Positions 13,633 to 63,700 of a stretch of DNA of 64,000 bases are shown piece after piece. The notes under the pieces were generated by a model, which was not told the DNA's origin, made no database searches, and saw only the letters and a program-made list of their open reading frames with translations. The position numbers and the translations under genes were made by a program. Origin of the DNA: Candidatus Nanoarchaeia archaeon. GTDB lineage: Archaea > Nanobdellota > Nanobdellia > Woesearchaeales > WJIZ01. The first letter of the stretch is position 1. Every line of letters begins with the position of its first letter. The DNA is taken from the NCBI GenBank assembly GCA_028279765.1, contig JANQND010000022.1, forward strand, positions 26,149 through 90,148, read 5' to 3'.

Positions 13633-13920
13633 GATGGAACACCCCTCGATCATTAGTTACTATTCAATAATGCTAACTGATATATAAAGATTATGGTAGA
13701 GAAAAGATAGGAAAAGGCAAAAAATAACAAGGATGAAAAGTGACTGGAGAAGAAATTTCCATACAAAGTATGGTAATTTCTTTTCGGAATAGGATTTTCA
13801 GAGAGAAAATCCGTGTTTGAGCCCCTTGTTGTTATTTTTTGCATTCTAGTCTATCAAGGATTAGTGAGAGAGTATTTTTTATCAGCAAGCTTTAAAAACC
13901 ATCATCCAATCTTTATTTTC

Positions 13921-18243: not shown

Positions 18244-18255
18244 GGTGTATACTTC

Positions 18256-19152
18256 TCAACTCTTATATTTTTGCCTTCTTCTAAAAAATTCGAAAACGGC
18301 GCCGGTGAAATCCTTATCGGTCTCAAAAGTAAGCAGGCTTGAGTTTGTTTTCTTTAGTTCTGTCTGCAGCCTTGAGATCTGGCTCTTAGAGGCCTGCTCA
18401 TAATCCTGGCGTGCCTGAGCGGGGTCTATTAGTACGTTCTGTGGTGAAAAAGGATCCTTGAGGTACACCTCGCCCCCCATATCCGGAAGTCTCATGTCGA
18501 CCGGATCCCTTATGACAAACAAAGAAAGGTCATACTTCAATCCTGCAACTTTCAGCAGGTTTTCCCATCCTGGCTTGAGGCCAATAAAATCCGAGATAAT
18601 GAATACAATTGCCTCCTTGGGGACAAAACCCAGATTCAGAATATAATTGAGAGAGTAATTCAGGTCAAAGCTTCCTCCATAGTAAGAAGGGTCCTTTAGT
18701 GTCCTGATAATACGATAGAATTGATTTCTTCCGATAGCCGGAGGGATAACAGGATTTATGCGATCGCTAAACATTGCCATTCCTACATTGTCGCCTACCT
18801 GATGCATCGCATAGCTTAATGTTCCTATAAGCTCTGCAGCAAATTCACACTTCAGTTTATTATGAGAAGAAAAAAGCATACTGTCTGAAACATCAAACAA
18901 AAAAAACACCGTAAGGTCCCGCTCTTCTTCCATTACTTTGACCATCGAGCGATGTGCACGAAGGGTCGCTCTCCAGTCGATAAGCAGTGCATCATCTTCG
19001 GATGAATATTCTCTAAAACCGACAAATTCAAGTCCTTTACCCTTGAAAACCGATTGATAGGTTCCTGCCAGCAACTCCCTGGAGAATCCTTTCTTAAGAA
19101 CAGCTTCAAGCTTGTTAATCAGTGGAAGAATATCAACTTTTATTTCTTTCAT
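18256..19152 (-). CDS. DUF58 protein (MoxR-associated, vWA-like)
   Basis: FKGKGLEFVGFREYSSEDDALLIDWRATLR is the DUF58 signature. Degenerate vWA (FLFDVSDSM). Confidence 0.8.
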   Translation of the reverse strand: MKEIKVDILPLINKLEAVLKKGFSRELLAGTYQSVFKGKGLEFVGFREYSSEDDALLIDWRATLRAHRSMVKVMEEERDLTVFFLFDVSDSMLFSSHNKLKCEFAAELIGTLSYAMHQVGDNVGMAMFSDRINPVIPPAIGRNQFYRIIRTLKDPSYYGGSFDLNYSLNYILNLGFVPKEAIVFIISDFIGLKPGWENLLKVAGLKYDLSLFVIRDPVDMRLPDMGGEVYLKDPFSPQNVLIDPAQARQDYEQASKSQISRLQTELKKTNSSLLTFETDKDFTGAVFEFFRRRQKYKS

Positions 19153-19190
19153 GTTTCATCCTGCTCTTTGCAAGAGACCTATATACATAG

Positions 19191-20492
19191 CTAAGGAACA
19201 GGAACCTTTCGCAAAATTTCTTCGATAACGCGCTCTGCTTTAATTCCTTCTGCCTGTCCTTCATAGCTAAGTATTAATCGATGGCGCAGCACATCATAAG
19301 CAATGGTTTTGACATGATGCGGAGTAACATAATTTTGGCCGTTGAGTACTGCCTCAGCTCTTGCGGCACTGATTAGCCCTATCGAGCCCCTGGGAGATGC
19401 ACCAAATTCAACATAGCGGCCAAGCCCCACACCATACTTTTTAGGGAACCGGGTTGCATCAATAAGCTTCACGATATAATGCTCCACTTTTTGGTCGACA
19501 TACACTTTTTTTACATCATCTTGAATCTTAAGGATTAAGTCAGGGCTAAGAACTGCCTTGACTTTAAAATTTTCAAAGGAATGAGTGGAAATATTTGAAC
19601 GCAGTATACGCTGTTCCTCATCAATATTCGGGTATCCCATATAAATTTTGAAAAGGAAACGGTCAACCTGAGCTTCAGGCAGGGAATAGGTTCCAACGTT
19701 TTCCAATGGGTTTTGGGTTGCCATAGTAAAAAAAGGAAGAGGGATAGGAAACGACTCTTTTGCGATGGTTGCTTGCTTCTCCGCCATAGACTCCAGCAGG
19801 GCAGACTGAACCTTAGGCGGAGCCCGGTTGATTTCATCTGCTAGGATGAAATTATTAAAGATAGGGCCTTTCAGGGTATAGAATCCTCTCCCTTCCTGAT
19901 AAGTACTGATTCCGATAATATCAGTAGGGAGCAAATCAGGAGTAAACTGAATTCTTGCAAATGAACACCCTGTCGTTTGTGCGAGAGTTCGAATAAGGGT
20001 AGTTTTTGCAATTCCCGGGACTCCTTCCAGTAAAACATGTCCGTCCGAGATAAGCGCACGGATGAGCCCTGTAATTGCCTCATCCTGGCCCACAAGAATT
20101 CTCTGCACTTCTTTTCTTACAGTAAGAAACAACTTTTGATAACTCTGGATTCGTTTTGAGAAGCTTTTATTATCAAGTATTTCTGCATGCTGCTCCTCAA
20201 CGATGTGCTCCTGCTGTGTATCCTTGATTAAGTCAGCTACTTTGCTAATCTCTTCTTTTTCAAGAGAGGGGTCCGGTTCCTGATGCTCTTCCTGCGGCTG
20301 CTCAGGCTGTGCTTCCTGTTCATCAACCTGTTCAATTTGCTCATCAATCTCTTCAATTTTCTCCGAAGATGAGGGATTATCTCCTTTGTTAAGCATATCC
20401 TGTTCTAATTCCAGTTTTTTTCGCAGAAGATCAAGCTTAGAAGATGACGAAGCCTTTGAAACCCTCTTTTTTTCACTCTTCACTTTCCCCAT
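19191..20492 (-). CDS. MoxR-family AAA+ ATPase
   Basis: Walker A GHVLLEGVPGIAKT; LLPTDIIG; Walker B ILADEINRAPPKVQSALLE. Unusual roughly 110-aa acidic coiled N-terminal extension. Confidence 0.85.
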   Translation of the reverse strand: MGKVKSEKKRVSKASSSSKLDLLRKKLELEQDMLNKGDNPSSSEKIEEIDEQIEQVDEQEAQPEQPQEEHQEPDPSLEKEEISKVADLIKDTQQEHIVEEQHAEILDNKSFSKRIQSYQKLFLTVRKEVQRILVGQDEAITGLIRALISDGHVLLEGVPGIAKTTLIRTLAQTTGCSFARIQFTPDLLPTDIIGISTYQEGRGFYTLKGPIFNNFILADEINRAPPKVQSALLESMAEKQATIAKESFPIPLPFFTMATQNPLENVGTYSLPEAQVDRFLFKIYMGYPNIDEEQRILRSNISTHSFENFKVKAVLSPDLILKIQDDVKKVYVDQKVEHYIVKLIDATRFPKKYGVGLGRYVEFGASPRGSIGLISAARAEAVLNGQNYVTPHHVKTIAYDVLRHRLILSYEGQAEGIKAERVIEEILRKVPVP

Positions 20493-21916: not shown

Positions 21917-24900
21917 TCATCCCCTTCTTCTCACAATTAATGAGACGATCACCACCAAAGCAATGAACAGGAGCAATAACAGCACACCGCTTACCAGCTT
22001 GAACAAGTCCCCTTCTCGCTGTTCAATAGGCACAGGCTGTTCAATCTCTCTGGGGTTGGTAACCAGGTAACGGCAGCCTTCAATAACAAAGTTGATCAGG
22101 TTGCGTGACTCTTCAAGGTTACCCTGGTCAAAAGAAGCCTCTGCCTCAGAAAGAAGCTCCGTAAGCTCAAGGCACTCAGGGTTATTATTGAGTAAGTCCC
22201 GTACAAATTCTATTTGGTTCTCTTCAATCGAACGATTATTTTCTATCCTGGCGATTCCCGTAACCGAGATTATTGAAGAGTCAGTGTAATCCGGGTCTCG
22301 GGAAGTAGCATTCACAATTACATCGAATTCTCCAATGGTCCCCTGCCACTGCATAAAGAGCATAAGCTCTTCAGACTGCCCGGGCCCTAATGATGAAATA
22401 GAATTTTCAGAGAACCAGGTTTTGACCTTATCACTATTCGTAGTAGCCTGCAGGTCTATGCCTGTCAAAATGACTTCAGCATTATTCTTCAGCACAATTG
22501 GCGCAACTACCGTATCATTATCGAAAGTGGTTAGGTGTGCCGGTGAAATTAATTCAAGGTATCGTGGTTCAGTTACTGTTCTTGTTCGTGTCTTGAATGA
22601 TGTTTTTGTGGTGGAAACAAAAATGAACTCTACCGAAGAAGTTTGATCAGCCTGTTCAACGGTAACAGACAGGTTATTGCTGGTAGTGGTATCATGCGAA
22701 TCATTAGCAATAAAGTAAATAGTCTCTGTTCCGAACCAGTCCGTTGGTGCTTCAACTCCGACTACATGGGAATCATTGTTAAGGGTTATAATCACGTTAC
22801 TGTTCCCTGCTGCGGTGAACACTACCGTATCGTCAGTATCAAGGTCAGAGAAATAATCATCCAGGTCTATCCAGTTCTGATTCGTTGTGCCTTGGCTTAG
22901 GCTGAGGTCTGGAAGGATATAGTGTATTTTAATGCTGCTCACATTTGGAGTGATACTCGTATCATTGGTCTCAAGGATGATCTTATACTGGATGTAGGTT
23001 GCATTCTCAGACACGATTTGTTCTCCGGAAGAGTTCAGATAGCTTCTATTAAGTGCAACAGTGCTCCAGTTATTCCAGTTATTTCCGTTCTGGCTTGTTC
23101 TGGTTTGCATAGATGCATTTGTTCCGTTCGGGGTTATTGCCGACCAGCTGATGGTAGTGAATCCGATGGGGCTGTAGAAGCTATTAAAGAGCGGCCCAAT
23201 ATCGATTGCAGCGGAGACAAATTCTCCGTATGTTGCATACGATCCTGTTCCGCTTGCAAGCAAAATGCCGCCTGTAGTAGTGTTAGTACTATTGTCGGTT
23301 CCGGAGCTAAACTCAGAATGCTGATCATGATGAATAGTTCCGAACACAGGTGCCCTGTTAGTATTATTTACCGTGATGTTCCACACAAAGGTGTCGTTCA
23401 GTCCTCTGCCATCTGAAACGACCAAAGTAAGGTTGTGAGCTCCTGCTTCCAGGAAGCCAAGCTCGTAGGTATAGTTCGAGGTCTTACTATTAGTAAGCAG
23501 GGTTCCGTCTTTGTACCAGCTGGTATTTATGGAGTCTCCGTTGGCATCTGTGGAGGTATGGTTGAAGAGGATTGAAGTATTTTCTGCAAGAGTTATCGAA
23601 GTGGTATTCATTGGGAAATCCGATCGGTTAGCAAAGGCAAAGACAGTGGATGTTGATACAGGGGTCCCATACGGGCGGATTTGGGTAATATTAGGAGCAG
23701 TATTAAATGCGCGGATGGTCAGGTTGAACAGCTGCGTAGTCTCTTTTCCCATAGTGTCGTTAACAGTCAGGTTGATCACGTGGACTCCTATAAAGGTGGA
23801 ATTTGGAGTAAAATTAAAGTATCCCGTTGAGTCATTGATCACGAAAATGTCTGCACTGGCATTAGTCCTGAATCTAAGAAGAGACTGTGCATCCTCCTCA
23901 TCCGTAGCATTAGCATCATAGGAAAAGAAGGATCCCTCATCAGCAATAAGGTTTGGAATCGGAGTAAGTACAGGAGCATCATTGAAAAAGTCAATAGTAA
24001 GGTTTATGGTTTCGTTATCTGATACTCCTGCACTGTCTGTTACATTAAATGTGATGGAATAGTTTCCTACATCACTGGCATTAGGCGTGAAGGTAAAGAA
24101 TCCCGAACTGGCATTGATAACAAAGAAACTCGAGTTCGTTGCAAAAGTAAGCGTATCATTATCGGGTGTCAGGGTATCATTATCTGTTGCATTTATAGTT
24201 AGGTTAAAGGGAGTATCCTCTGTTAAGAGAAGATTTCCAATGAGGCCAAGAATAGGGGCATCATTAGTGTTATTCACCGTAAAGTTCAGAATTCTGGAAG
24301 TGTTATCGTAGCCATCACTAGCGGTAATATTGATCGAATGGTTCCCTACCTGAGCATTAGTGGGGGTAAAACTAACGAATCCCGAGGAATTTACAAGGAA
24401 CCAATTCCCTCCTCCAAGAACCTCAGCAGTGATAGTTACGATGTCTCCTGCGTCCGGATCAGTTGCATTAATCTGGCAGGTATAGGGTTGATCCTCAACA
24501 GCAGTAGCATTGTCTTGGCACCAGTAATGAATAGTTGGAAGCTGGTTAACATTGAGGACAGTAAAATTGACAATGATTTCATCATAGAGACCGTCACTAT
24601 CATTCACCGTGATGTTCATATGGAATACCCCTACATCATCATTGATAGGAGTGAAGTTAATCATTCCTGACGTGGCGTTGAGTATCAGGCGTCCCGAGAA
24701 GGTATTGTTGAGAGTAAAATAAAAGGCCTCTCCCAATGGGGTAAGGCTGTCTTCATCACTAACATTCTTAGTAAGATTATGGGAGAACAGCGAAGACTCA
24801 GGTGCAGTAAGGTTTCCAATATTAAGGGTAGGGTGCTCCGGTGTATTGTTCACTGTGAAGTTAACCAGCCGGGAGCTTGATAGCCCGTATTGGTCTGTCA

Positions 24901-27900
24901 CGGTAAAGTTCAGCGTATGGTTCCCAACTTCTGTATCATTAGCAACAAAGCTCACATTTCCACTTGTAGAGTTGACAATGAACCAGCTCGTATTAACACT
25001 AAAGGTGAAACTATCCCGTTCTAAATCTGTTGCGTTTACATGGCATCTATGTGTCTGGTTTTCCTGTATTGTGGTGTTATCGTCGCACACATAATCAAAA
25101 ACAGGGGCAGTATTATTTCTGATAGTAAGCACAAACGTGACATTCGAGCGGGTTGCGGACCGGTCAGTAACATTCATCAGGATAGTATAATTCCCCTTCT
25201 CTCCCTCTGCTGCAGTAAAGGAGATCAGTGATGCAGTCTCATTCACTTTTACTGCAGAAAAGAAAGTCGAATTGGTTCCAAAAGTCAGGTTTTCGCTATT
25301 GTTATGGAAACTATTGCCCGGCTGGTTAAAGTCATCATCAAATCCGGTAACATTGTACGAGTAGAGCAGGCCAACTATTGCTATCTGATTTGAAATATTG
25401 AAAAGGCCCGGGACATCATTAGTGTTATTGACCGTGAAGTTGAAGTATGTGTTTACACTAAACGATCCGTCAGATACTGTCAGATTAATAGTATGATTGC
25501 CAACGTGCTGGTTTTCTGCAGTAAAGTTTGCAAGGACTTCCTTGCTCGAGACGGTTGTAAGGTTAAACCAACTGACATTTGTACTGAAAGTAAGAGTATT
25601 GTTCTCCTGGTCTGTAGCGTTAATAGTACAGCTAAAGGCTATATCTTCTAGAGCAGATCGCGAACTGTCACACACGTAATCAAAAACAGGGGGGTTATTA
25701 ATATCATTAACAGTAAAGTTCACAAGCTTCCATCCTACACCGCTATTGCTATCGGTAGTCGAGATGTTAAGAGTATAATTTCCCGTATCATCGTTGACAG
25801 GTGTGAAATTAATAAGGCCCGTAGTCAGGTTCATGATCAAAGTCAAGCCGGTACAGTTGCCGGGATCATAAGGGCGGGTACAGGAGAGAATACTATAATT
25901 GAATATCGAAAGGCTGCTATCTTCCTCATCTGTTGCTGTAAGCTGGTAGGTATACAGGGTTTCTGTGGTTGCATCAGTAATGGTATTACCTGATGGCTGT
26001 GTAAATACAGGAACATCATTAACAGCAGTCATGCTGATGTCAAGGGTAGCTGAATCAGGAGCATTATCACTGTCTTTAACAGTAAGCTGAGGAGACCAGG
26101 GGCCCTCTATCGCGTGGTCGCTGGTAGTAACATAAACCGTCAGGTTTCCGTTTGTGAAATCAAACGACCAGCAATTGCTGCAGTCGCTATGGGAAGTAAG
26201 GTTTGATATGGAACCTGCAGTATAATCATAGCTAAGCACATCATTAATGTTAGAGTCATTGGCATATTGGCTGATATTATAAGAGCAGGGAATGTCTTCT
26301 ATGCAGGCAACGGAAGGAAGTTTTCCCTCTGTCTTATTGAATACCGGGGCGCTATTATTAATAATAATGCTATCAGTAGCATTAAGAGTAGGCATGGTCG
26401 CATTCGTGCAGAGCACATTGAAATAAGATACACCTTTGTACGGTATTTTTCTGCTGAAATTCCAGGGAACGGATCCTCCATGATAGCTCATGTTCTCGGT
26501 ATCCTGGAAAGATCCGGTAAAGTTGAAACTAATCTCGCAGGTTCCGTTTGCAATGGCAGTACTGTTTGTATAGTTTGCATAGAAAATAATCTCATTAGTG
26601 GAATACCAGGTGCCTGAGTCAGTCGAATCCCAGATGGAAATGTTTCCTTCAGTGGTGTTATAGCTTGCATAATTATTTGCGTATGCGGTTGTATTTCCAA
26701 AAGTGAATTGCTGATTATGAATTCCGGGAGTAAGAACCTGCACGGTCCAGTAACCGGTGTCATTACATTCATATCCTTCATATGATGCACTCTTTCCTCC
26801 ATCCCACACGTAAGAGAGAGTGTCATCTCCGCACATCAGCGATAAAGGAACCAGATCGTCAGGAAGCGCATTTCCATAATTGGTATCGGCTATCGCGCTT
26901 AAAGTAAGGTTTGCCCTTCCAAGGGTAGTGAACTCAACGGTCCAGTTTCCTCCCACGGTAGGGTAGCTCTGCACATTAAGAACAGTAATATCAACCTCAT
27001 ACGTCTGATTAGAAAGGTGAGGAACTATCCATTTGATAGAATCGATGAGCCCATTTGAGTTTTCATCGATTCCTTCAAAGGAAACCTGAAGGCGAGTATC
27101 ATTAATGATATGATAAAGCGTTATTGCATCAAGCGGCTTCTCATCAATCGCAGTGTATGCCAAAATATTTGTATAATGCACATCAGAGCTAATCACTATC
27201 TTCTTTCTTGAATCACTGATATTCTCCTCCTCGGAGAGTGGGGCCTCTGTGGTGTAGTGCACCTCTATTTCCTGGGCGCTCTCGTTAATAAGGAGCCGGG
27301 TCTCGGTCTCACTGCTAATAAGCTCTTCAGATTCAAGAGCTTTAACCAGCGCAGACTCTTCTATTTCCTCTATGGATGTGCTGACACTGTCCAGTGTTGT
27401 GTCAGGGTATAGTACTGGTTGAGCAGAAGAGCGGTGCGAGGAGAGTCCCTTTGAAGCTTTGCCGGAACTCTTTTTCGTCTCTGTCTTTTCTTTTTCTTCA
27501 AGCAAAGTAATTCTCTGATCCAGTTTTGAAATCTGAGCAGTAAGGATAGTAATCTGTTTCTGAGCAGATTCTTTCTTCTTTTGCCCGGTCTCCCCAATCA
27601 ATTGATCAGCAAGTATGTCCTGCTTTTGCTCATACATTACCTTCAGTTCCGAGAGGAGGGCAACATCTTCTGGATCATTCGTTTTTTGTTTCAGCTTTCT
27701 CTTGATCTGTTGATTGAGATGCTTGCTAGTAGTCTCCTGTGCAAATTCAGTAAAATTCTTCTGCACATCGTCAGTAATCACTGCAAGGTTAGATGGGGAA
27801 ACTTCCTGCTTTTGTCCGCCATTGATGGTATAAACAGAAACATTAAATGCCTCTGCTGGAAGCCCTACCTCGACATTATCTTCTGAATCAGTAGCTACTA

Positions 27901-30900
27901 GTGATCTCTTCCATAATACTGGTTTTCCTATTTCTACTGGTGATGCCGGTGCGAAAGAATCTGCTGAAGAGTCTGTTGAAAGTTCTTCAGATACTGCGCT
28001 TAAAATAGTAGCATCATCACTTCTGTTAGTATTGGGTATGGCGGCAGAATCCGAAACATTAGCTGCAACCAGGATTTCGACAATATCAGACACTGTGCTC
28101 TGCTTTGAGTCATTTACAATGAAGAATGTGTATGCAGACCCTTCAAATCCTGGATCTGCACTAATAGTCACTAAGCTATCTTCAATAGTGAGGGATACGC
28201 CCTGTGCATCATAAGCATGGTAATAGAGATCATCATTATCTGCGTCGGTAGCATAGAGCCCTAGATCGAAAGAATAGGAAGAATTTGCGTTCATCACAAT
28301 AGTTTCAATAGTAGATAATTGTGGAGCGCTGTTAGAGATAAGAGATGACCGCTTATACGTAGCATTAGAAAGCAGGATGCTTCCGGAAGTTACGTCAATC
28401 ATCAGTGTACCTGCTGAGAATGAAGGAAGAGAGCAGCTCTCTACACAAATATCTGTGAAAGGCACCATCTCAGGCTGGAAGATAGCACTCAGTCTCTCTG
28501 CTTCAGATTCGATAATCTCGGAGTATGGATTAAGCGGGTCCAGGCTATAGTTAGCACTGATAACCTTCGCGCTAACAACATTCTGTTCTCCTGCTCCCTC
28601 TTTTTCTCTGTTCAGATAAAACGTATCATCCCATTGGTCGCGCTCAGGTCTGAGCTCTACAAGGCCACAGCAGGAAGTGCTCCCATAGCAGCTATATTCA
28701 TTTCCCGAATCATGGCTAACAGTCCAGAGTGTACAGAGATTACCAACATCCCTATCCCAGCTGAACCGTGTATCGCTAACAGAGAAGTCAACTACACCCT
28801 GAGTTGATACTATTCCGTTATTGTCAGGGTCCCAGGGTGTCCCTCCGTGGTAGCGCAAGACCATATCAATAGCTTTCTTGTTCTCAGAGAAAGTAATATC
28901 CTGGCTTTCTCTTATGAGAGTGTAGTTCCGAGGAGCAACGAGAGAACTGTCAAGTACCAGGACTCTCTCTTGCGCACTGCCGGCGTAGACCCGTATCTTT
29001 GCATCCCTTGAGAGTGCTCCACTTAAAGTAAGCGAATCCAGCGAGCCGCTAATTCCTAAATCCACCTGGCCGGAATCGTCAAAAGTAGTGTCGAGCATCA
29101 GAGAGGTGTCTCCAAAGACAACACCGCCAGAGTCTTCAAAGATAACGCTGCCGGTGATTGCGGGATTCGTGAAGAGATACATACTGCCAAAAAGGCTGAT
29201 CATTAATAAGAGGACTAAAGCCGTCCTATTTCTGTTTCCCTTTGAGGGTTTCTTCTTTTTGGAGAGCGCTGTTTTCTGGCTCGCTTGCTTGCTGGATTTT
29301 TTATTTGCCTGATAAACAGAGTCAACTGCTACAGCAGAAGTTTTCTTCCTGATAGTAAACTCTATCAAAGAAATTGCTTCCTGAGCAACCTTCTTGAGGT
29401 CAGCAGCAGAAATAGCCTTAGCACTATATTCAATGTCAATAAGGCGATCAAAGAATGGCTCAACCCTATGCCTGACAAAATCTTCCTTTCGCTTCTCGCT
29501 TGATGTGGTTCCCTCATAAGCAAGAGTAAATTGGCGGTCAAATCGTTTCTTGTACCAACCTCGCATAAGAGCACTGAGTTGCTTAGTGAGAGTGTTTCTG
29601 TTCTCTTTAGGGGCTTTGAGTATGATATCATTCAGCCGGGCGATAACATCTTCTGAAGCACGAGTGATAAGAGTTCTGGATTTCCCGGATGGTTTCAGCA
29701 ACATATTCTTAAGCGCGCCTGGTGCATTCTTCATTCTATCGAAAAGGGCATGAACAAAGGAAATTCCATTCAGAGTTCTCAACAATTCCTTCAAATGAGA
29801 GTGCCTTGGTTTTTCTCCTTCCGGTTTCCTTTTGTGTTTCCTTCTTCTCAAGAAAAGGAAAAGAGCCAAGAGAATAATTAGTATAGCAAGGACAATCCGC
29901 CAAAGAGAAAGCCCCTCTTCACTCTGCGGAGTCAACTGCTCAACTTGTACTTGCTCAATGTATTCCCCAAGATTGCAGGGCCTGCAGGGTCCACCGCAAT
30001 CTATCCCCTCTTCGCACAGCTCACTTCCGTCATCCTGAGCATGACAGTTCAGCACAGAATCAAAGCAGGTCACACACTCATTAGGACAACCTGCACCGCA
30101 GTCAACGCCTTGCTCCCCGAAATTCTGAATACCGTCTGAGCAATGCTCAATAAACTCACAAGACCGGGTAAGGTTAGGCTGGAATTTAGTAGTCCCGCAT
30201 CGGTTAATATCAGTACAGTTTCGCGCAGCAGATCCACTGCCACAGGCAGACCATCGTGAACAATGCCACTTTTCCTCACAGCGAAGCAGCTTTGCGGCGC
30301 CACCGCCACCGCCGCCACCGCCACCACCGCCTCCGGCAGTAGAGGGAATAGTTACCGTTTCAGGAACATTGGTAACCGTGTAATTAGCACAGACGATTTT
30401 TGAAGAGTCAATGGTATCATTGGCCTGATAACAAACAGTCTCTACTCCGAACCAGTTTGCAGCAGAGCTCAGGGTAACAAAGTGGCTTGCCGGGCAATTA
30501 ATTCCAAGAGGATTGATATTATTATCAACCGTAACAGTTATTTGCGGAGATGCTGTTAAATGAGATACAGTGTACTGCAGGCAGTCGCCATCTGAATCAT
30601 TGAAGTAGCCATCAAGATTATAGGCGATGATTGTGGTATCTTCATTCCAGGAAGCATCCAGGCTATCAGGATTGCCAGTATACTCAGGAGCGGTATTATT
30701 TGCAACTACTGTTATATTGACCAATACCGACGTATGATCAGCTGTGCAATTGCTGGTGTCATTAACCGTGATATTCAGAATGTGGTCTCCGATATGCACA
30801 ATTGATGGGGTGATATTAAGTGCTCCGGTGGACGAATCAAACTGCATGAATGATTCAAAGGAGGAGAATGAGGTATAGTTTTCTTCAACTACAGAGAAAA

Positions 30901-31618
30901 CAAGGCTGTCTTCTACATCAGCATCGGTTGCGTTAATCGTGATATTCCAAAGGATATTTCGGGGAAGGGTGTAATTGGAGCCAATAGTAATAACAGGAGC
31001 AGATTTGGCATTGCAGCCCTTAGTAATCTTTAAGCTAAGAATATCTGTTGAAACATTATTATTGCATCCGCTTCCATCATCAACACTGATGTTAAAATGG
31101 CTTGTTCCTAATGCAGTGATATTCGGAGTGAAGTTAATAACTCCTTCTGATACCGTAATGTTGAACAGTGTTGCATTATCACTAAAGGTAAATATCGTCC
31201 CAAGGTTGTTATCACTTACCGTCACATTGCAATAGTATTCATCAGTCACGTTTACAGTAGTAAGGCAGGATGATAGATTTACCTGAGGAGGATCATTTAC
31301 GCAAAGCGAAGTAACTCCGGTAACGACAAAATTTCCTGTCACAAGATCAGGTCCGCCTGCTGAATTCGCAGAGGTAAGTAAGTAGAGGTTGACGCCAACT
31401 GAAAAGAGTACAAAAAGGAGTACCAAAGCAGCAAGAGAGTTATTAGAAACTGTCTTTCTCTTCTCAGAGAAAGAAAGATAGTCACGAATAATAGACTGGA
31501 CCCGAAGAGGAGTATATCCTTCGCGCAGAAGAGACTCTTCGATAGCCTGAAGAGAATACCCTTTAGCACGACAATGAGCCACGTATTTTCTCAGTCCGAA
31601 TCTACCTTTCTCTTCCAT
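21917..31618 (-). CDS. giant polytopic surface protein (3233 aa) with four TM segments and two ectodomains
   Basis: 9.7 kb uninterrupted ORF. N-terminal about 60-aa cytoplasmic domain. TM1 (about 31370–31430). Ectodomain 1 of about 490 aa with Ig-like repeats, a (Gly)12 tract and an EGF-like Cys-rich block. TM2 (about 29840–29900). Roughly 210-aa basic cytoplasmic loop. TM3 (about 29160–29220). Ectodomain 2 of about 2380 aa with coiled coil, the shared SDVHYTNIL module and Ig/cadherin-like repeats. C-terminal TM plus RRRG (21917–22000). Dense N-x-S/T sequons. Confidence 0.8.
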   Translation of the reverse strand: MEEKGRFGLRKYVAHCRAKGYSLQAIEESLLREGYTPLRVQSIIRDYLSFSEKRKTVSNNSLAALVLLFVLFSVGVNLYLLTSANSAGGPDLVTGNFVVTGVTSLCVNDPPQVNLSSCLTTVNVTDEYYCNVTVSDNNLGTIFTFSDNATLFNITVSEGVINFTPNITALGTSHFNISVDDGSGCNNNVSTDILSLKITKGCNAKSAPVITIGSNYTLPRNILWNITINATDADVEDSLVFSVVEENYTSFSSFESFMQFDSSTGALNITPSIVHIGDHILNITVNDTSNCTADHTSVLVNITVVANNTAPEYTGNPDSLDASWNEDTTIIAYNLDGYFNDSDGDCLQYTVSHLTASPQITVTVDNNINPLGINCPASHFVTLSSAANWFGVETVCYQANDTIDSSKIVCANYTVTNVPETVTIPSTAGGGGGGGGGGGGAAKLLRCEEKWHCSRWSACGSGSAARNCTDINRCGTTKFQPNLTRSCEFIEHCSDGIQNFGEQGVDCGAGCPNECVTCFDSVLNCHAQDDGSELCEEGIDCGGPCRPCNLGEYIEQVQVEQLTPQSEEGLSLWRIVLAILIILLALFLFLRRRKHKRKPEGEKPRHSHLKELLRTLNGISFVHALFDRMKNAPGALKNMLLKPSGKSRTLITRASEDVIARLNDIILKAPKENRNTLTKQLSALMRGWYKKRFDRQFTLAYEGTTSSEKRKEDFVRHRVEPFFDRLIDIEYSAKAISAADLKKVAQEAISLIEFTIRKKTSAVAVDSVYQANKKSSKQASQKTALSKKKKPSKGNRNRTALVLLLMISLFGSMYLFTNPAITGSVIFEDSGGVVFGDTSLMLDTTFDDSGQVDLGISGSLDSLTLSGALSRDAKIRVYAGSAQERVLVLDSSLVAPRNYTLIRESQDITFSENKKAIDMVLRYHGGTPWDPDNNGIVSTQGVVDFSVSDTRFSWDRDVGNLCTLWTVSHDSGNEYSCYGSTSCCGLVELRPERDQWDDTFYLNREKEGAGEQNVVSAKVISANYSLDPLNPYSEIIESEAERLSAIFQPEMVPFTDICVESCSLPSFSAGTLMIDVTSGSILLSNATYKRSSLISNSAPQLSTIETIVMNANSSYSFDLGLYATDADNDDLYYHAYDAQGVSLTIEDSLVTISADPGFEGSAYTFFIVNDSKQSTVSDIVEILVAANVSDSAAIPNTNRSDDATILSAVSEELSTDSSADSFAPASPVEIGKPVLWKRSLVATDSEDNVEVGLPAEAFNVSVYTINGGQKQEVSPSNLAVITDDVQKNFTEFAQETTSKHLNQQIKRKLKQKTNDPEDVALLSELKVMYEQKQDILADQLIGETGQKKKESAQKQITILTAQISKLDQRITLLEEKEKTETKKSSGKASKGLSSHRSSAQPVLYPDTTLDSVSTSIEEIEESALVKALESEELISSETETRLLINESAQEIEVHYTTEAPLSEEENISDSRKKIVISSDVHYTNILAYTAIDEKPLDAITLYHIINDTRLQVSFEGIDENSNGLIDSIKWIVPHLSNQTYEVDITVLNVQSYPTVGGNWTVEFTTLGRANLTLSAIADTNYGNALPDDLVPLSLMCGDDTLSYVWDGGKSASYEGYECNDTGYWTVQVLTPGIHNQQFTFGNTTAYANNYASYNTTEGNISIWDSTDSGTWYSTNEIIFYANYTNSTAIANGTCEISFNFTGSFQDTENMSYHGGSVPWNFSRKIPYKGVSYFNVLCTNATMPTLNATDSIIINNSAPVFNKTEGKLPSVACIEDIPCSYNISQYANDSNINDVLSYDYTAGSISNLTSHSDCSNCWSFDFTNGNLTVYVTTSDHAIEGPWSPQLTVKDSDNAPDSATLDISMTAVNDVPVFTQPSGNTITDATTETLYTYQLTATDEEDSSLSIFNYSILSCTRPYDPGNCTGLTLIMNLTTGLINFTPVNDDTGNYTLNISTTDSNSGVGWKLVNFTVNDINNPPVFDYVCDSSRSALEDIAFSCTINATDQENNTLTFSTNVSWFNLTTVSSKEVLANFTAENQHVGNHTINLTVSDGSFSVNTYFNFTVNNTNDVPGLFNISNQIAIVGLLYSYNVTGFDDDFNQPGNSFHNNSENLTFGTNSTFFSAVKVNETASLISFTAAEGEKGNYTILMNVTDRSATRSNVTFVLTIRNNTAPVFDYVCDDNTTIQENQTHRCHVNATDLERDSFTFSVNTSWFIVNSTSGNVSFVANDTEVGNHTLNFTVTDQYGLSSSRLVNFTVNNTPEHPTLNIGNLTAPESSLFSHNLTKNVSDEDSLTPLGEAFYFTLNNTFSGRLILNATSGMINFTPINDDVGVFHMNITVNDSDGLYDEIIVNFTVLNVNQLPTIHYWCQDNATAVEDQPYTCQINATDPDAGDIVTITAEVLGGGNWFLVNSSGFVSFTPTNAQVGNHSINITASDGYDNTSRILNFTVNNTNDAPILGLIGNLLLTEDTPFNLTINATDNDTLTPDNDTLTFATNSSFFVINASSGFFTFTPNASDVGNYSITFNVTDSAGVSDNETINLTIDFFNDAPVLTPIPNLIADEGSFFSYDANATDEEDAQSLLRFRTNASADIFVINDSTGYFNFTPNSTFIGVHVINLTVNDTMGKETTQLFNLTIRAFNTAPNITQIRPYGTPVSTSTVFAFANRSDFPMNTTSITLAENTSILFNHTSTDANGDSINTSWYKDGTLLTNSKTSNYTYELGFLEAGAHNLTLVVSDGRGLNDTFVWNITVNNTNRAPVFGTIHHDQHSEFSSGTDNSTNTTTGGILLASGTGSYATYGEFVSAAIDIGPLFNSFYSPIGFTTISWSAITPNGTNASMQTRTSQNGNNWNNWSTVALNRSYLNSSGEQIVSENATYIQYKIILETNDTSITPNVSSIKIHYILPDLSLSQGTTNQNWIDLDDYFSDLDTDDTVVFTAAGNSNVIITLNNDSHVVGVEAPTDWFGTETIYFIANDSHDTTTSNNLSVTVEQADQTSSVEFIFVSTTKTSFKTRTRTVTEPRYLELISPAHLTTFDNDTVVAPIVLKNNAEVILTGIDLQATTNSDKVKTWFSENSISSLGPGQSEELMLFMQWQGTIGEFDVIVNATSRDPDYTDSSIISVTGIARIENNRSIEENQIEFVRDLLNNNPECLELTELLSEAEASFDQGNLEESRNLINFVIEGCRYLVTNPREIEQPVPIEQREGDLFKLVSGVLLLLLFIALVVIVSLIVRRRG
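30299..30334 (-). repeat. in-frame (GGY)12 trinucleotide tract encoding Gly12 in giant protein
   Basis: Plus strand reads gccaccgccaccgccgccaccgccaccaccgcctcc; it translates on the minus strand to GGGGGGGGGGGG immediately before the Cys-rich block. Confidence 0.85.
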
Positions 31619-32000: not shown

Positions 32001-32825
32001 TCAGTAAATTTCAGAATGATCCAGCCTTCCTCCCTGCCGATCATAGGCAATAAGGCGAGTATGCTCAGAGACTTTGGGGACAATAAACAGAAGCGATGCA
32101 CCGGTTGTGCGGCCCTTTTCGATAATCGTATAGTCGAGCCAGTCACGGAGAAGGTCTGAATCGTACTCGACATTGTAGAGACGGCCGGTTTCATCCTCAA
32201 GGCGCATCTTGAAAGGATCGTAATAGAAGCCTTGCTCTTGTTTGTAGTCCAGTATTTCAGGTTTATCAATGCCTAGGTTCTTGATCTTAAACCGAACAAT
32301 CAAGTATGTATGGTCAGTATCAGACAAATCAATGTCGACATTAGGTATGCGGTTCCTTTTTTCATACTCAGTTACCTTGATCTCTAATTGTTGTTCACAA
32401 TCTAAGGCACAGGAAAAGAAATTTTCTCCGCCGCTACAGAGATTATCACCACAGCACGGAAGAATAGGATCAGAAAGGCATCGCCCCAGCTGAAAATTGT
32501 AATAATCTTCAGTACAGGCATCACCATCGTTGCACTCCTGCGGACAGTCCTCTGACCAGGGAAATTCTCCTTCTTCGCACACTCCATTCCCATCACAGGG
32601 AGAAATCTCTTTATGAAGACAGGCATAGCCCGTCGTTCTGCTGCAGGTATCCAAAGTGCAGGCATCTCCATCATCACAGCTCTCAGGACAGGAAGGTGTT
32701 TGAATAGGGCAGTTTTCAAGATCAATCACTTTAGTAACGCCGTCAGGGCAAAGAAGAAATTCTTCCTGAACGCATCCGTACAGTATCAGGAGACCTAAAA
32801 TAAAGATGAGATTCCTCTTTTTCAT
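32001..32825 (-). CDS. secreted Cys-rich lipoprotein-like protein with C-terminal beta-sandwich domain
   Basis: Signal plus lipobox-like MKKRNLIFILGLLILYGC. About 115-aa region with 24 Cys in EGF/defensin-like spacing (CPESCDDGDACTLDTC…CNDGDACTEDYY…). C-terminal about 130-aa domain (DUF4352-like). Confidence 0.65.
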   Translation of the reverse strand: MKKRNLIFILGLLILYGCVQEEFLLCPDGVTKVIDLENCPIQTPSCPESCDDGDACTLDTCSRTTGYACLHKEISPCDGNGVCEEGEFPWSEDCPQECNDGDACTEDYYNFQLGRCLSDPILPCCGDNLCSGGENFFSCALDCEQQLEIKVTEYEKRNRIPNVDIDLSDTDHTYLIVRFKIKNLGIDKPEILDYKQEQGFYYDPFKMRLEDETGRLYNVEYDSDLLRDWLDYTIIEKGRTTGASLLFIVPKVSEHTRLIAYDRQGGRLDHSEIY

Positions 32826-32895
32826 AAAGAATTATACGAAATACAGAATTATTTAAAACTAATGTTTTGAGTATGCAACGAAACACGATGCAGAA

Positions 32896-34197: not shown

Positions 34198-34212
34198 AAA
34201 TAGGTAACCTCG

Positions 34213-34890: not shown

Positions 34891-34943
34891 ATTACTTCAT
34901 TTCCTTATCGTCGACATATTTTATAAACATTTCGAAGCTCATT

Positions 34944-60700: not shown

Positions 60701-63700
60701 TTTTCTGATAGAGAGTGCAAGGCCTTTATTAGTATCATAAGCTCCCCAGAGCACATTATAACTTTGATGGGCAGCAATGTTCACCCACCCAAAGAGAGAA
60801 AGTGAGTTTGCATTACCATAGATAGAAGTCCCCATATCTGCATAATCAGTATTTCCATCCATAGTAAGGCCATTTCCGAAATAGCCGGAGTTGGCAGTAG
60901 TCGCACTATCAAGGAGCGTACCGTTCTGCCTGCTATAGTATTCTATGATATGCGAGCCGTTCGCATCATCCATGCGCCACCACGCAACTAAGGAATCATC
61001 AAAGTCAATGACGGTTGAAATATTCCCCACATTATCAGCTGCAGAAACATTGACGATCAGAGTATTATCAGAGACTACTGATCCATCAGCAGGTGTTGCG
61101 GAAGTATAGTTCGCCTCAGGTGTAGTTAGGTCAATGCGCAGCGTCCTATTAGAGCTGGAGTTAACATTGTTCTGGATATCTTGAGCATAGACGGTATAAC
61201 TGTGAACTCCTTCTGAGAGGCTGGTAAAATTGACTTCTAGGTATTGTGTCGAAGTGTTTGCATACAGTGCCCTTACTTCTTCTTGGGTAAGTGAACGATT
61301 GAACACCAGAACATTATCAATAGTTCCGTTAAAGTGGTATGTTCCTCCATTGCTTCCAATAAGAAGTTGCTCTGGAGCGTTAAAGTCCGTATTATAGGCT
61401 CCCCCGGTCATGTTGTAGAACTGCCCATCCCAAAAACAGTGATAGCCAACGGTAGCATTCCCTAAAGGAGTGCATGCGAGGAAGTGCCACTTACCTACAT
61501 CTGCAGTAATTCCTGAAATATAAGTGGACAAAGAGCCCCAGTATAAGTAATTGTTAGCAGAATGGAAATAATAGGCCTGAGACTTTGTCCATCCGACATC
61601 ATTATCATAGATATATCCAATATATTGGTTCCTTCCAGCAGTAGAGGATAACTCGTTAAGCTTGTACCAGGCAACAAAAGTAGTAGTATCAGCTGCATCA
61701 TCTGATATTCCGCTAAATGAAGTATCCCTGATAATATCACCGGCTCCATCAAATTCGAATGCCGCACCTATTTTTCCATCACTCGTTTGGCTTGCGCCGT
61801 CAACTATGGTTAAATCGTTTCTTCCCATATAATCGGTTGGATTATTTGATCCATCAAGATCATCCATTCGATACCAGGAGACCAAAGAATCATCAAGATC
61901 CACGAATACGGAGAGATTTGATGTGTCGCTTGCAGTTACATTTAGTATAAACGAATTTTTGCTGCGATGTGAACCATCAGCAGGAGTAGGGTTAGCAACA
62001 GAAAATTGCTCAATAACACCGTCAGTCAAATTTGCAGTGAGTGTATTAACAATAGAAGACAAAGTAGGAGAGTAGAAGCTGTTTGATACATTCCCTGCAA
62101 AGAAAGTAAAGTTCAGGGTAATATTTGTCGATGCGGGGTCAATGGAGAATGTGTTCTGTCCTGTAAATACCTGATCAGTCGTATAGTACCAGCTCCCGGC
62201 ATAGTATCCAACTGTCAAATTGATAGAGCTGCCATACAATGCCTGATGGTCAGCTTTTACCACAACCTGGCTATTGCCAGAAGTAAAATTAAGGTTGGAG
62301 ATAATTTGCTCCCCACGCGGCTTGAAACGATCAGAGGCATTCAGATAGAGGCCCATCATTTGAGTTGCAGTGAGGCTGGTGTTAAACATCATAAGCTCAT
62401 CAAGGCTGCCATTGATAGTTCTTGCAGCCTGGGTAGTATCACTATTAGGATGGCCACCGATAGTCAGCACCCTATCCCTACTATTGGCAATTCCTCCTCC
62501 AAGATCATCCGAGCAAAGGAACGTTCCATTCATGTAGAGTGCATAGTCAGTAGAATTAATAGTGCCAGCCACATGAGTCCACTTATTAAGAGGAACGGCA
62601 ACACTACAGTCAATCAGGGTGTCAGTATAGCCATTTGCACTCAGCCATAAGTGATTAGAGCCTGCTTCAAGCCCCAGGTACCAATATACGGAGCCTTGTT
62701 GGAAAATATATTCTGTACCATCGGTATCATTTCGCAGATATATCCACGCGGAGAGCGTAATATTTTTGCCGGTGATATTAAAATCATCAGCATAGGCAAC
62801 TTCCAGGCGATCGCCGTTTACCAGATCCATTGCTCCTCCATACAATCCCGATGAAGTGTAGGAAGCGTTTTTTATCAGAGTCGCATCATGATTATTCTGT
62901 GAATAATCATAGGTAGTAACTGCGCTCGCATTCTCATCAAAAGGAAGATACAGAACTAAACGGTCGTAAGGAGCACTGTCAGAAATTTCCAGATGGGTAA
63001 AATTATTCTCGGCTGTAACGTTTATCAGGGTCGTATTCACAGAAACATCGCTAACAATCAGGGTTGGGTCAATAATATGGTCAAACTCCAGGTACGTTGA
63101 AGCATTGTCCAGATTAATAACCTGCAGATCAAATACATCCTGGCTGCCGTTCATTTCAGTCAGGTAAATAGTGTAGTAACTTTCATTTACTATAACAGGG
63201 AATTGTGCAATGAGCCGGGTATCGTTCTGTTCAAAGACCCTTACTGCTGTATTAAGTGATTCATTGTTACGCACATAAATCGTGATGTCCTTAGAGGGAG
63301 TAAGGTTTTCTTCAAACGTTACTCTGACATACTCCCCGTGGTAAACAGGTGTGCTCCAGTTGCCATCTTTTTGACGTACCTCAGGATAAATATCAGCAAT
63401 AAGACTTCTATTCTCTGCAAGGTGCTCTGCCTTAGTAATCAGAATAATTTCATAGGTCTGATTTGAAAGATGCGGGACAGTCCAGTAAATACGATCGATC
63501 AATGAATTATTGTTACGATCAATATAACTTACATTTTCAACGAGCTGCCGGGTATCATTCACAAGCCAGTATAATTTCACCGATTCTTTTCGTGAGTCGC
63601 GGATATCAGTAAACGACAAAATGTTAGTGTAGTGCACATCAGACTCGATAACAACCCTCTTTACTCCCTCTGTAACATTCTCCTCCTCCACACTGGGGCC

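Follow-up and report, generated by a model that had tools for sequence, protein, structure and literature searches.

The window analyzed here is a stretch of 64,000 nucleotides from a Candidatus Nanoarchaeia archaeon contig. It encodes two giant proteins, Giant 2 and Giant 1, both on the minus strand:

21917..31618, minus strand: Giant 2 gene, a complete open reading frame of 3233 aa
36758..64000, minus strand: Giant 1 gene, at least 9080 aa, with its 5' end beyond the window edge

Giant 2 possesses four hydrophobic segments (aa 57-75, 572-590, 799-817 and 3211-3229), which imply two ectodomains. Its only Pfam matches are Big_9, He_PIG and Cadherin_5, located at aa 2350-2750. Giant 1 contains 17 Laminin_G_3 stretches, Big_13 and NosD/beta-helix repeats. 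Because its frame is stop-free between 63817 and 64000, the gene runs past the window edge; no hydrophobic segment was found in the part of the protein inside the window. An ATPase family is not among the Pfam matches of Giant 2 or of this part of Giant 1. N-x-S/T sequons and acidic residues abound in both giants. The open reading frames between them include CARDB-like, DUF4352-like and helix-turn-helix proteins. Across the window, a search for tRNAs and Rfam families returned no match.

The module shared by Giant 1 and Giant 2

Giant 1 and Giant 2 each contain a single copy of an unnamed extracellular beta-sandwich domain (~105 residues), referred to here as the module. It is flanked by a linker on its N-terminal side and by a different domain in each giant on its C-terminal side:

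27293..27586, minus strand: Giant 2 linker, acidic and coiled-coil-like, aa 1345-1442, alignable with the Giant 1 linker
26981..27292, minus strand: Giant 2 module, aa 1443-1546, LINESAQEIEVHYTTEAP...WIVPHLSNQTYEVDITV, HMM E 5e-41 over profile positions 2-106
26639..26980, minus strand: type A domain of Giant 2, directly past the module, LNVQSYPTVGGNWTVEFTTLGRANLTL..., missing in Giant 1
63749..64000 (window edge), minus strand: Giant 1 linker, which aligns with the Giant 2 linker
63434..63748, minus strand: Giant 1 module, VIEEPAPSLEVTYVTEGP...WTVPHLSNQTYEIILIT, HMM E 8e-39 over profile positions 2-104
63062..63433, minus strand: type B domain of Giant 1, a beta-sandwich past the module, KAEHLAENRSLIADIY...YVRVTFEENL...EFDHIIDPT

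A whole-protein BLASTP comparison of Giant 1 with Giant 2, run with composition-based statistics, yields a single HSP with 46% identity over 135 columns (E 6.5e-27), and no further similarity is seen at E<1e-3. With the 61 codons ahead of the listed TTG start added, the alignment lengthens to 203 columns (38% identity, E 2e-36), now starting from residue 2 of Giant 1 as truncated by the window. The linkers of the two giants align with each other, and homology therefore probably continues off the window. At the other side, similarity ends sharply at the C-terminal end of the module. The type A and type B domains have no profile-profile similarity, and homology downstream of the module was rejected on their hhalign alignments (E 0.2).

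An earlier note, made from the letters of this DNA, had described a shared module of ~80 aa in both giants. Its existence is borne out by the BLASTP result (E 6.5e-27), and the alignment of the two regions, with 46% identity over 135 columns, goes well beyond a few chance residues. The peptides that it quoted are present, to which the minus strand has to be added for both. The positions were also right. The Giant 2 peptide K1471-V1546 maps to 26981-27208, in keeping with 26990-27200, and the Giant 1 peptide maps to ~63434-63661, in keeping with about 63400-63650. The unit is real, and its size needs revision to ~105 aa, since it starts ~25 residues before the first Lys of the quoted peptide, at a conserved E-V-x-Y-x-T-E-x-P.

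The module HMM finds exactly one copy per giant, and no extra or degenerate copy was detected in either giant or in the other reading frames of the window. In Giant 1, the module occupies aa 85-189 of the frame inside the window and is not N-terminal, because the gene runs on past the window edge. In Giant 2, 626 aa separate the module from the third of the four hydrophobic segments, which places the module in the second ectodomain rather than at the membrane. The same four-segment layout is found in a cluster representative from Woesearchaeota (P0086, 3033 aa). The module holds an equivalent place in both giants, as the earlier note proposed: past an acidic or coiled-coil linker and ahead of variable arrays.

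The two modules are 52% identical to each other, with 58% identity at the DNA level; in each other's lists of 223 nearest relatives they stand 15th and 37th. A recent duplication or gene conversion was rejected on the DNA identity of 58% and on the finding that the modules are not nearest neighbors. The two genes are paralogs, as had been suggested, only insofar as both belong, as old members, to a very large multigene family. Likewise, the description of the giants as otherwise different is correct downstream, where types A and B are unrelated, but not upstream, where similarity reaches the window edge.

Distribution and layout of the module family

The module is the hallmark of many surface proteins in DPANN archaea (Woesearchaeota, Nanoarchaeota and Pacearchaeota), which together form a large family. 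As defined by profile A1, which has 106 positions, the family comprises 1,965 cluster representatives at E<=1e-3 and 1,638 at E<=1e-10, with proteins of up to 6,700 aa. In GTDB species genomes, 396 module loci were found. Several loci often share a genome, with up to 5 among the 79 loci listed; the titles of these 79 are mostly Woesearchaeota, Nanoarchaeota, Nanoarchaeia, Pacearchaeota and Aenigmatarchaeota, and none bears a Nanohaloarchaeota label. Going by the labels of representatives and loci, the family is almost entirely confined to surface proteins of Woesearchaeota and Nanoarchaeota. Among 2.9 M viral contigs in IMG/VR the module is all but missing, with one weak match, and a viral origin was rejected on this result.

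Both giants match profile A1 over its full length and possess the D...D loop, the W-x-x-P-x-L-S-x-Q motif and all invariant residues. Pfam has nothing over Giant 2 aa 1443-1546 at E<=0.01. Over the Giant 1 module, the only Pfam match is DUF1829 (aa 126-174, E 0.0074), which at 17.2 bits is below the cut-off of 22.2. NCBIfam has nothing over the module at E<=1. The source names of family proteins include 'hypothetical', 'LamG-like jellyroll' and 'beta-helix repeat', and four of the eight checked were unnamed. A full-text literature search found no description of the module.

In most family proteins, an N-terminal hydrophobic segment is present, and the module lies toward the N-terminus. Its median start is residue 499 in the 121 representatives that begin with Met, and it falls within the first third of the protein in 43 of the 52 proteins of at least 1,500 aa. 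There is usually one module per protein (8 of 140 have two copies). The domain that follows is of type A in 42 cases, type B in 67 and another kind in 19. Module identity within types is 0.47-0.48, versus 0.47 between types. Comparison of within-genome paralogs in four further genomes shows conservation peaking in the module; in one example, the values are 88-92% for the module, 62-79% across the preceding 250 aa and 24-48% past the module. Giant 2 fits the family layout, with the module past an anchor and followed by type A. In Giant 1 the module is followed by type B, and the anchor would be off the window.

A module boundary met by alternative, unrelated domains, together with a peak of conservation, would suit a role at a junction. 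Of the roles that the earlier note considered, a junction is the one that fits the family pattern of median start, alternative domains after the module and conservation among paralogs. A stalk is not supported, as the models described below are globular beta-sandwiches, and a processing domain, taken up below as a self-cleaving 'fuse', is unlikely.

Fold and conserved sites of the module

The module is predicted to fold as an eight-strand beta-sandwich. AlphaFold places eight beta strands in the Giant 2 module (pLDDT 86.5) and the same eight strands in the Giant 1 module, which was modeled with the next domain (pLDDT 90.9). Both models leave the conserved N-terminal E-V-E-Y-Y-T-E-G-P without structure (pLDDT 59-68). 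The nearest solved folds found by Foldseek are CBM29, CBM32, accessory domains of GH66/GH44/GH27 and C-terminal domains of Vip3, all of them weak. For the module alone, the best E is 0.018 and the query-normalised TM-score is at most 0.56, so that no close match among solved structures was found. The module has no cysteines. Two of its conserved elements are adjacent:

27032..27067, minus strand: EF-hand-like loop of the Giant 2 module, DENSNGLIDSIK, D1518-K1529
26996..27031, minus strand: invariant hairpin of the Giant 2 module, WIVPHLSNQTYE, W1530-E1541, with an H-L-S turn and an N-Q-T sequon
63485..63520, minus strand: EF-hand-like loop of the Giant 1 module, DRNNNSLIDRIY
63449..63484, minus strand: invariant hairpin of the Giant 1 module, WTVPHLSNQTYE

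The loop lies between beta strands 6 and 7 in both AlphaFold models. Across the family, position 1 is Asp in 100% of copies, position 3 is N/D in 99%, position 5 is N/D in 98%, position 9 is Asp in 97% and position 12 is E/Q in 92%. The pattern D-x-[DN]-x-[DN]-[GS]-x-[IV]-D-x-x-[EQ] is shared with the loops of EF-hands, integrin alpha and FG-GAP repeats; in the module family, positions 1, 3, 5 and 9 are nearly invariant. As in integrin-type loops, the motif joins two beta strands. Unlike a canonical EF-hand, the module has no helix-loop-helix; the flanking helices are absent, and the AlphaFold models have strands on both sides of the loop. The copies in the window also differ from EF-hands at position 12. 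Giant 2 retains positions 1, 3, 5 and 9 and has Lys at position 12, where 81% of the family has Glu, while Giant 1 has Ser at position 6 and Tyr at position 12. Without an acidic ligand at position 12, both loops fail the PROSITE EF-hand pattern PS00018, which 103 of 251 family copies pass (41%). The shorter 9-residue form D-x-D-x-D-G-x-x-D, with D/N allowed at positions 3 and 5 and G/S at position 6, is found in 233 of 251 copies and in both copies in the window. In a PDB profile search, all 10 sub-threshold matches were EF-hand proteins aligned on the loop. Judged by its sequence, the D-x-[DN]-x-[DN]-G-x-[IV]-D loop probably holds a calcium ion that would stabilize the module.

The hairpin follows, with its turn between strands 7 and 8 and P-H-L-S at that turn in both copies. 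In about 250 unique copies, its Trp, Pro and Ser are conserved at 100%, Leu at 99%, Gln at 94% and Thr at 91%. The His of H-L-S (position -2) is present in 62% of copies and replaced by Ser in 30%. In Giant 2 numbering, further near-invariant residues are E1464 (99%), D1526 (97%), K1472 (96%) and T1457 (94%), and conservation is also high at Q1538 (94%), E1541 (88%) and N1537 (84%). An N-x-[ST] sequon is present in 208 of 251 copies, and its Asn and Thr are lost together (odds ratio 15, p 2e-8). This suggests that the conserved N-x-T at the turn of strands 7 and 8 probably carries an N-glycan, which may also stabilize the module.

Of 222 copies, 220 retain H1481, H1534 or both. The association between the two histidines has a p value of 1e-7, which becomes 1e-5 after 80% redundancy reduction, 0.03 at 60% and 0.14 at 55%. 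The association weakens with redundancy reduction and may partly reflect phylogeny. Together, the strict conservation of the hairpin Trp, Pro, Leu and Ser, of E1464 and of K1472, and the either-histidine rule hint at a specific chemical or binding site. Such conservation is unusually strict for a passive spacer, and a pure connector leaves the site unexplained.

A putative connector and its alternatives

What the homology, the size and taxonomy of the family, the place of the module, its fold class and its patterns of conservation and co-variation suggest, with somewhat better than even confidence, is a rigid connector or "neck" between base and variable outer parts. As a domain family, it would be stabilized by calcium and glycosylated. 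The conserved membrane-proximal base would consist of the membrane anchor, ~500 residues made up of conserved domains, a '...KPVKW...' domain among them, and the linker, with the module at its end. There, the module would couple the base to interchangeable distal parts, namely a type A or type B domain followed by LamG, Ig-like or beta-helix arrays.

The known systems closest to such a connector are the calcium-rigidified beta-sandwich extenders or connectors in giant adhesins of bacteria (RTX adhesins such as MpIBP, SiiE and LapA). These are also extracellular all-beta domains of ~100 residues in very large, anchored, modular proteins, with an acidic calcium-type loop and a place between the anchor and the ligand-binding arrays. 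Further downstream, Giant 2 has Big_9 and Cadherin_5, which are Pfam families of this extender type. The module differs in being archaeal, in usually occurring once per protein and not in a tandem array, and in belonging to proteins with an N-terminal membrane anchor rather than type I secretion. It also has no Pfam or NCBIfam match, and its W-x-x-P-x-L-S-x-Q is far more conserved than extender repeats.

One alternative, which is unlikely, is that the module is a self-cleaving 'fuse' in which the L1535-S1536 bond is cut by an N-to-O acyl shift in the hairpin of strands 7 and 8. Ser1536 would be activated by H1534 or H1481, and the releasable, non-covalently attached distal part could reach ~9,000 residues. 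Membrane-anchored base and distal part would in that case stay joined solely through strand 8 in the sandwich, permitting force-dependent release. H-hydrophobic-|-S/T is a recurrent motif of self-cleavage, seen as H-L|T/S in GAIN and as H-F|S in Nup98 and ZU5. In GAIN/GPS of adhesion GPCRs and polycystin-1, the Nup98 C-terminal domain and ZU5 of PIDD/UNC5, the motif lies near the end of a sandwich in a large anchored protein. The module resembles them in this, and H-L-[ST] precedes the last strand in both copies. The tight beta-hairpin turn that carries H-L-S, the conservation of its Ser (100%) and Leu (99%), the near-invariant acidic E1464 (99%) and D1526 (97%), and the retention of one histidine when the other is missing (220/222) are all consistent with self-cleavage. 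However, no GAIN, SEA, ZU5 or Nup98 fold is among the top 50 Foldseek matches listed, and there is no sequence match. The module is a single sandwich of ~105 aa, versus a GAIN of ~320 aa with two subdomains. It has no cysteines, and hence none of the four GPS cysteines or their disulfides. Moreover, the His at -2 is not invariant (62%, with Ser in 30%), and the histidine association falls to p 0.14 at 55% redundancy. The sequon directly after the Ser and the invariant Pro and Trp fit a purely structural turn equally well. If true, a self-processing module would be an archaeal counterpart, of independent origin, to the GAIN/SEA 'mechanical fuse' in the ultra-small attaching cells of DPANN archaea.

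In another reading, also with a low probability, the module would be CBM-like and bind an invariant glycan, such as that of the cell's own envelope, thereby fastening the base to the cell surface. Among solved folds, CBM and accessory beta-sandwiches come nearest, albeit as weak matches. Structural calcium sites and conserved aromatics (Y1455, Y1482, W1530 and Y1540) are typical of CBMs, and strong conservation beside hypervariable partners suggests a constant ligand. Against this, the structural matches are weak (best E 0.018, TM-score <=0.56), no Pfam CBM match was obtained, and the aromatics may simply form the core of the sandwich. In addition, the family proteins already have transmembrane anchors.

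It is very improbable that the module is a cross-linked clamp, held by a Lys-Asn isopeptide bond (K1472-N1537, with E1464 or E1541 as catalyst) or an ester bond (T1457-Q1538) between the first and last strands and resisting pull. Clamps of both kinds are found in pilin and adhesin domains of Gram-positive bacteria, where the ester cross-link has the motif H-x-D-x-x-D-x-x-Q. The polar residues needed are nearly invariant (T1457, E1464, K1472, N1537, Q1538 and E1541), and a giant surface protein is likely to be mechanically loaded. Yet the ester motif is absent from both sequences, and Pfam gives no Cna_B-type or pilin match. Where T1457 is replaced by Leu (13 copies), Q1538 is always kept. K1472 and N1537 do not co-vary; N1537 varies together with T1539 instead, the behavior expected of a glycosylation sequon. 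An ester or isopeptide cross-link was rejected on the lack of a motif and the misfit of this co-variation. A similarity due to chance or composition, conceivable for two proteins so rich in sequons and acidic residues, or a DNA cassette recently copied by gene conversion has a negligible probability given an E of 6.5e-27 with composition-based statistics, 1,965 clusters recovered by the same profile, and copies that are 58% identical in DNA and not mutual nearest relatives.

Surface proteins are thought to be the means by which DPANN archaea recognize and hold their hosts, and a considerable part of the small DPANN genomes is given over to giant genes. The giants are annotated by generic outer domains (LamG, beta-helix) or as 'hypothetical', and the module offers a lineage-restricted handle for finding them in metagenomes. 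As a connector, it would also mark the split between base and payload for structural work and for studies of payload exchange. The strict hairpin, the either-histidine pattern and the loop make for a small expressible target of ~100-220 residues.

The SPEARE proteins of Nanohaloarchaeota are membrane-anchored giants of up to ~9,000 aa with a proposed role in host contact, such as SVXNc_0300 with 9,409 aa (PMC10266531). They are described as starting with a signal peptide at the N-terminus and as having arrays of Ig-like domains and, at the cytoplasmic end, an ATPase domain similar to VirB4/TraG (PMC10266531). Giant 1, with at least 9,080 aa, is of the same size class; the giants of the window differ in having no Pfam ATPase, with the N-terminus of Giant 1 lying off the window.

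Among the open reading frames between the giants there is no reverse transcriptase and no Avd, and a diversity-generating retroelement in the window was rejected for this reason. One member of the module family elsewhere does adjoin a diversity-generating retroelement.

The domain shared by the two giant surface proteins

Giant 1 and Giant 2, the two giant surface-protein genes of the window, share an unnamed beta-sandwich domain, here called the module. The earlier note had located matching peptides of about 80 residues in the two proteins; both peptides are encoded where it placed them, within a unit of about 105 residues.

21917-31618, minus strand: Giant 2, complete ORF of 3233 aa
26981-27208, minus strand: quoted peptide in Giant 2
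36758-64000, minus strand: Giant 1, listed start TTG at 63817, frame open through base 64000
about 63434-63661, minus strand: quoted peptide in Giant 1

Because the Giant 1 frame has no stop up to base 64000, the window edge truncates the gene. The encoded protein has 9080 aa or more, comparable in size to the largest proteins reported from archaea (9,409 aa; PMC10266531).

BLASTP of whole Giant 1 against whole Giant 2 returned a single HSP (46% identity over 135 columns, E 6.5e-27) and no second one. The module HMM confirmed the shared domain, with one copy per giant and no further copy in any other frame of the window, and chance similarity between the giants is excluded. Adding the upstream Giant 1 codons lengthened the alignment to 203 columns (38% identity, E 2e-36). 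This alignment begins at residue 2 of truncated Giant 1, so the homology spans the acidic, coiled-coil-like linker, and it very probably extends past the window edge. Identity between the two modules is 52% in protein and 58% in DNA, and they rank 15th and 37th among each other's 223 relatives. The DNA identity and these ranks rule out a recent duplication or gene-conversion tract, and by these comparisons the giants are old paralogs. The paralogy proposed earlier is broadly right in that both belong to one very large DPANN multigene family.

Word-index searches found short metagenomic fragments only. An exhaustive profile search with the 18-sequence alignment that defines the family (A1) gave 1,965 cluster representatives at E<=1e-3, 1,638 of them at E<=1e-10, the largest matching proteins reaching 6,700 aa. 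Scanning GTDB species genomes yielded 396 confirmed module loci; among 79 loci listed, at least 13 assemblies are represented more than once, one Woesearchaeota genome five times. Nearly all relatives belong to genomes of Woesearchaeota, Nanoarchaeota and Pacearchaeota, and 2.9 million viral contigs held just one weak match. The closest relative is from a Woesearchaeota MAG of a hydrothermal vent study (62% identity), in a gene of 2998 aa that is similar to Giant 2 both before and after the module. Judged by these relatives and by the archaeal genes of the window, the DNA belongs to a DPANN archaeon, probably of Woesearchaeota type. Pfam-A and NCBIfam have no model for the module, and no description of it was found in the literature. 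A source name was present for four of eight large members checked: 'hypothetical', 'LamG-like jellyroll fold domain-containing' (two) and 'right-handed parallel beta-helix repeat-containing', naming that reflects outer domains only. The module is an undescribed domain family. Its probable kind, a beta-sandwich connector of calcium type within a giant modular surface protein, is a familiar one.

Predicted fold and conserved sites

Directly C-terminal to the module usually lies one of two alternative domains, which show no profile-profile similarity to each other (E 0.2).

Type A, downstream of the module as in Giant 2: LNVQSYPTVGGNWTV.F.T.G.ANLTI
Type B, downstream of the module as in Giant 1: ITKAEHLDENR...YVRVTFE...DITIY.R...EFDHIIDP

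AlphaFold2 gave an all-beta model for the Giant 1 module with type B (pLDDT 90.9, 34-row alignment) and a model of the Giant 2 module alone (pLDDT 86.5, 18 rows), with the same eight strands in both. In each, the conserved N-terminal E-V-x-Y-x-T-E-x-P is a low-confidence coil, the D-x-N-x-N-x-L-I-D loop leads from strand 6 to strand 7, and the chain turns from strand 7 into strand 8 at P-H-L-S-N.

Site statistics were taken over 251 unique module copies (residue numbers follow Giant 2). S1536 is 100% conserved, and Y1455, T1457, P1460, E1464, K1472, Y1482, D1518, D1526, W1530, P1533, L1535, Q1538 and T1539 are conserved in at least 90%. The loop consensus, D(100%)-x-N/D(99%)-x-N/D(98%)-G/S/N-L-I/V-D(97%)-Y-I-E/Q(92%)-W, is an EF-hand-type 12-residue loop and a putative calcium site. 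PROSITE PS00018 matches 103 of the 251 copies and the 9-residue form D-x-D-x-D-G-x-x-D matches 233; all ten sub-threshold PDB matches of the module profile are EF-hand proteins aligned on the loop (E 0.14-2.3). Because it joins two strands, the loop is presumably closer to integrin/FG-GAP hairpin sites than to helix-loop-helix EF-hands. Position 12 is E in 81% of the family and Q in 11%; both window copies lack an acid there and retain positions 1, 3, 5 and 9.

27032-27067, minus strand: loop of Giant 2, Lys at position 12
63485-63520, minus strand: loop of Giant 1, Tyr at position 12

With these replacements, metal binding in this organism may be weaker or otherwise changed. An N-x-[ST] follows the invariant Ser in 208/251 copies; copies without N tend to be without T as well (odds ratio 15, p 2e-8), and N-Q-T is evidently a real sequon under selection. 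The H1481 position is His in 83% of copies, and that of H1534 is His in 62% and Ser in 30%. At least one of the two is His in 220/222 copies, joint loss occurring almost never. Their association (p 1e-7) changes with redundancy reduction to 1e-5 (80%), 1.4e-4 (70%), 0.03 (60%) and 0.14 (55%). The pattern suggests that H1481 and H1534 are spatial neighbours with one shared function near the invariant Ser.

Position of the module and its possible role

Among 121 representatives beginning with Met, the median start of the module is residue 499 (interquartile range 326-615), and the module lies within the first third of 43/52 proteins of at least 1,500 aa; two copies occur in 8/140 proteins. Most members have a hydrophobic segment in the first 100 residues, and some a C-terminal one as well. 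A '[KRQ]-P-[VI]-x-W' domain precedes the module in 74/111 copies (median 193 residues before the W-x-x-P motif), and an 'I-T-G-x-[AV]-[VI]'-type linker motif is present in 71/111. Mean module identity is 0.47-0.48 within downstream types and 0.47 between them, and only 121/170 nearest-neighbour modules share the downstream type, so the module is conserved largely regardless of the domain that follows. When the module and 250 residues on either side were aligned for three to five paralogs in each of four other genomes, conservation was highest in the module for 21 of 22 pairs.

Identity among paralogs, by genome
JBDRQV: upstream 250 aa, 62-79%; module, 88-92%; downstream 250 aa, 24-48%
JBDRFR: upstream 250 aa, 55-59%; module, 64-68%; downstream 250 aa, 28-41%
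CAYUHF: upstream 250 aa, 38-56%; module, 58-74%; downstream 250 aa, 30-60%
JAGVYS: upstream 250 aa, 76-87%; module, 84-89%; downstream 250 aa, 50-76%

We favour, by a modest balance of probability, a family-defining structural connector. It would form the end of a conserved base next to the membrane, be stabilised by calcium and an N-glycan, and have different distal arrays attached after it. This reading agrees with where the module sits in the protein, with how sharply the homology ends, with the module's independence of the downstream type, with its peak of conservation and with the fold class, but it incompletely explains the near-absolute conservation of the W-P-L-S-Q hairpin and the histidine rule. 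The junction suggested in the earlier note is broadly right, its stalk is unsupported, and its processing role has a low probability.

Self-cleavage between L and S, as in GAIN, ZU5 or Nup98 domains, is unlikely. The tripeptide, the kind of turn and the histidine pattern are right for it, but the GPS cysteines are missing, the His at -2 is variable and there is no fold match: GAIN, SEA, ZU5 and Nup98 domains are absent from the Foldseek matches listed for the module alone. That search of the PDB gave nothing at E<=1e-3, the best matches being accessory beta-sandwiches of GH66, GH44 and GH27 enzymes (query-normalised TM-score <=0.56). For the two-domain model, the matches were weak and of tandem jelly-roll or CBM-like type: allantoicase (E 1e-4), C-terminal domains of Vip3, GH101, and CBM29 (target-normalised TM-score about 0.43 for CBM29). 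This weak resemblance is the sole basis for CBM-like binding of a constant glycan, which is similarly doubtful. An internal isopeptide or ester cross-link is highly improbable, as its known motifs are absent and the co-variation pattern is a misfit. The remaining probability falls to functions other than these four. The module would be useful to workers on DPANN cell surfaces and giant proteins, with a clear upside if the H-L-S hairpin proves reactive.

Features of the giants and neighbouring genes

Four segments of Giant 2 are hydrophobic. The loop that connects the second to the third has basic stretches on either side, and the C-terminus is basic too; this arrangement implies two ectodomains. 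The Giant 2 module lies 626 residues past segment 3, the usual distance, and a Woesearchaeota protein (P0086) has the same four-segment layout. Giant 2 appears to be a fusion of two membrane proteins, in the order cytoplasmic N-terminus, TM1, Cys-rich ectodomain, TM2 then RRRKHKRK, basic loop of ~200 aa, TM3, large ectodomain, TM4 then RRRG. An I/V-T-G-x-x-V motif follows each outward-going segment (NPAITGSVIF, LVTGNFVVTG).

21917-31618, minus strand: Giant 2 hydrophobic segments at aa 57-75, 572-590, 799-817 and 3211-3229
30299-30334: run of 12 Gly in the Cys-rich ectodomain
29138-29167 and 31316-31345, minus strand: I/V-T-G-x-x-V sites

Many relatives (P0047-P0069) have a pre-module linker with two such motifs around an amphipathic, Phe/Leu-rich helix of 15-20 residues (for example ITGYAV...LLTRLSEWLFNV.ITGYTI); the two giants have a coiled-coil-like or acidic stretch in place of this region. 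Giant 1 carries 17 Laminin_G_3 stretches, Big_13 and, towards its C-terminus, NosD/beta-helix repeats. Its density of N-x-S/T sequons is about 5 per 100 residues, and no hydrophobic segment was found in its visible part, which includes the C-terminus.

Other window genes were assigned from translations and Pfam results. The giants and five co-oriented ORFs between them constitute a block of surface-protein genes about 42 kb long. No tRNA, rRNA or diversity-generating retroelement was found in the window.

2112-2765: riboflavin kinase with N-terminal HTH, typically archaeal
5514-6623: RtcA, typically archaeal
7414-11283, minus strand: 1289-aa ORF, no Pfam match; lipoprotein-like N-terminus (MKKLISVLLLTLALMLAAC), Cys-rich stretches, poly-Ser tail
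12137-13207: Trm1-like methyltransferase, typically archaeal
13813-15675: aIF5B-like GTPase, typically archaeal
within the window: DUF460 protein, typically archaeal
17308-20492, minus strand, just downstream of Giant 2: apparent trio of MoxR-type AAA ATPase (433 aa), DUF58-like (298 aa) and VWA/BatA-like (311 aa) proteins, judged from translations alone
32001-36786, minus strand: the five inter-giant ORFs, of 413 and 433 aa (weak CARDB-like matches), 225 aa (no match), 217 aa (C-terminal sigma-70 region 4-like helix-turn-helix) and 274 aa (Cys-rich Dicty_CTDC repeats and DUF4352)

Two short family members were seen elsewhere. One (L082) has no retroelement within 8 kb. The other (L001; GCA_964467035.1, CAYXNX010000002.1, 10001-14067), of 186 aa, lies in a diversity-generating retroelement cassette, where it is immediately followed by a 119-aa ORF, an FGE-sulfatase-fold protein, a bAvd and an RVT_1 reverse transcriptase. 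Most of the module is present in it, minus the conserved N-terminal strand EVEYYTEGP; a type B domain comes next, and the tail at the C-terminus is a coiled coil that contains Cys. A 3430-aa giant lies 7 kb further along.
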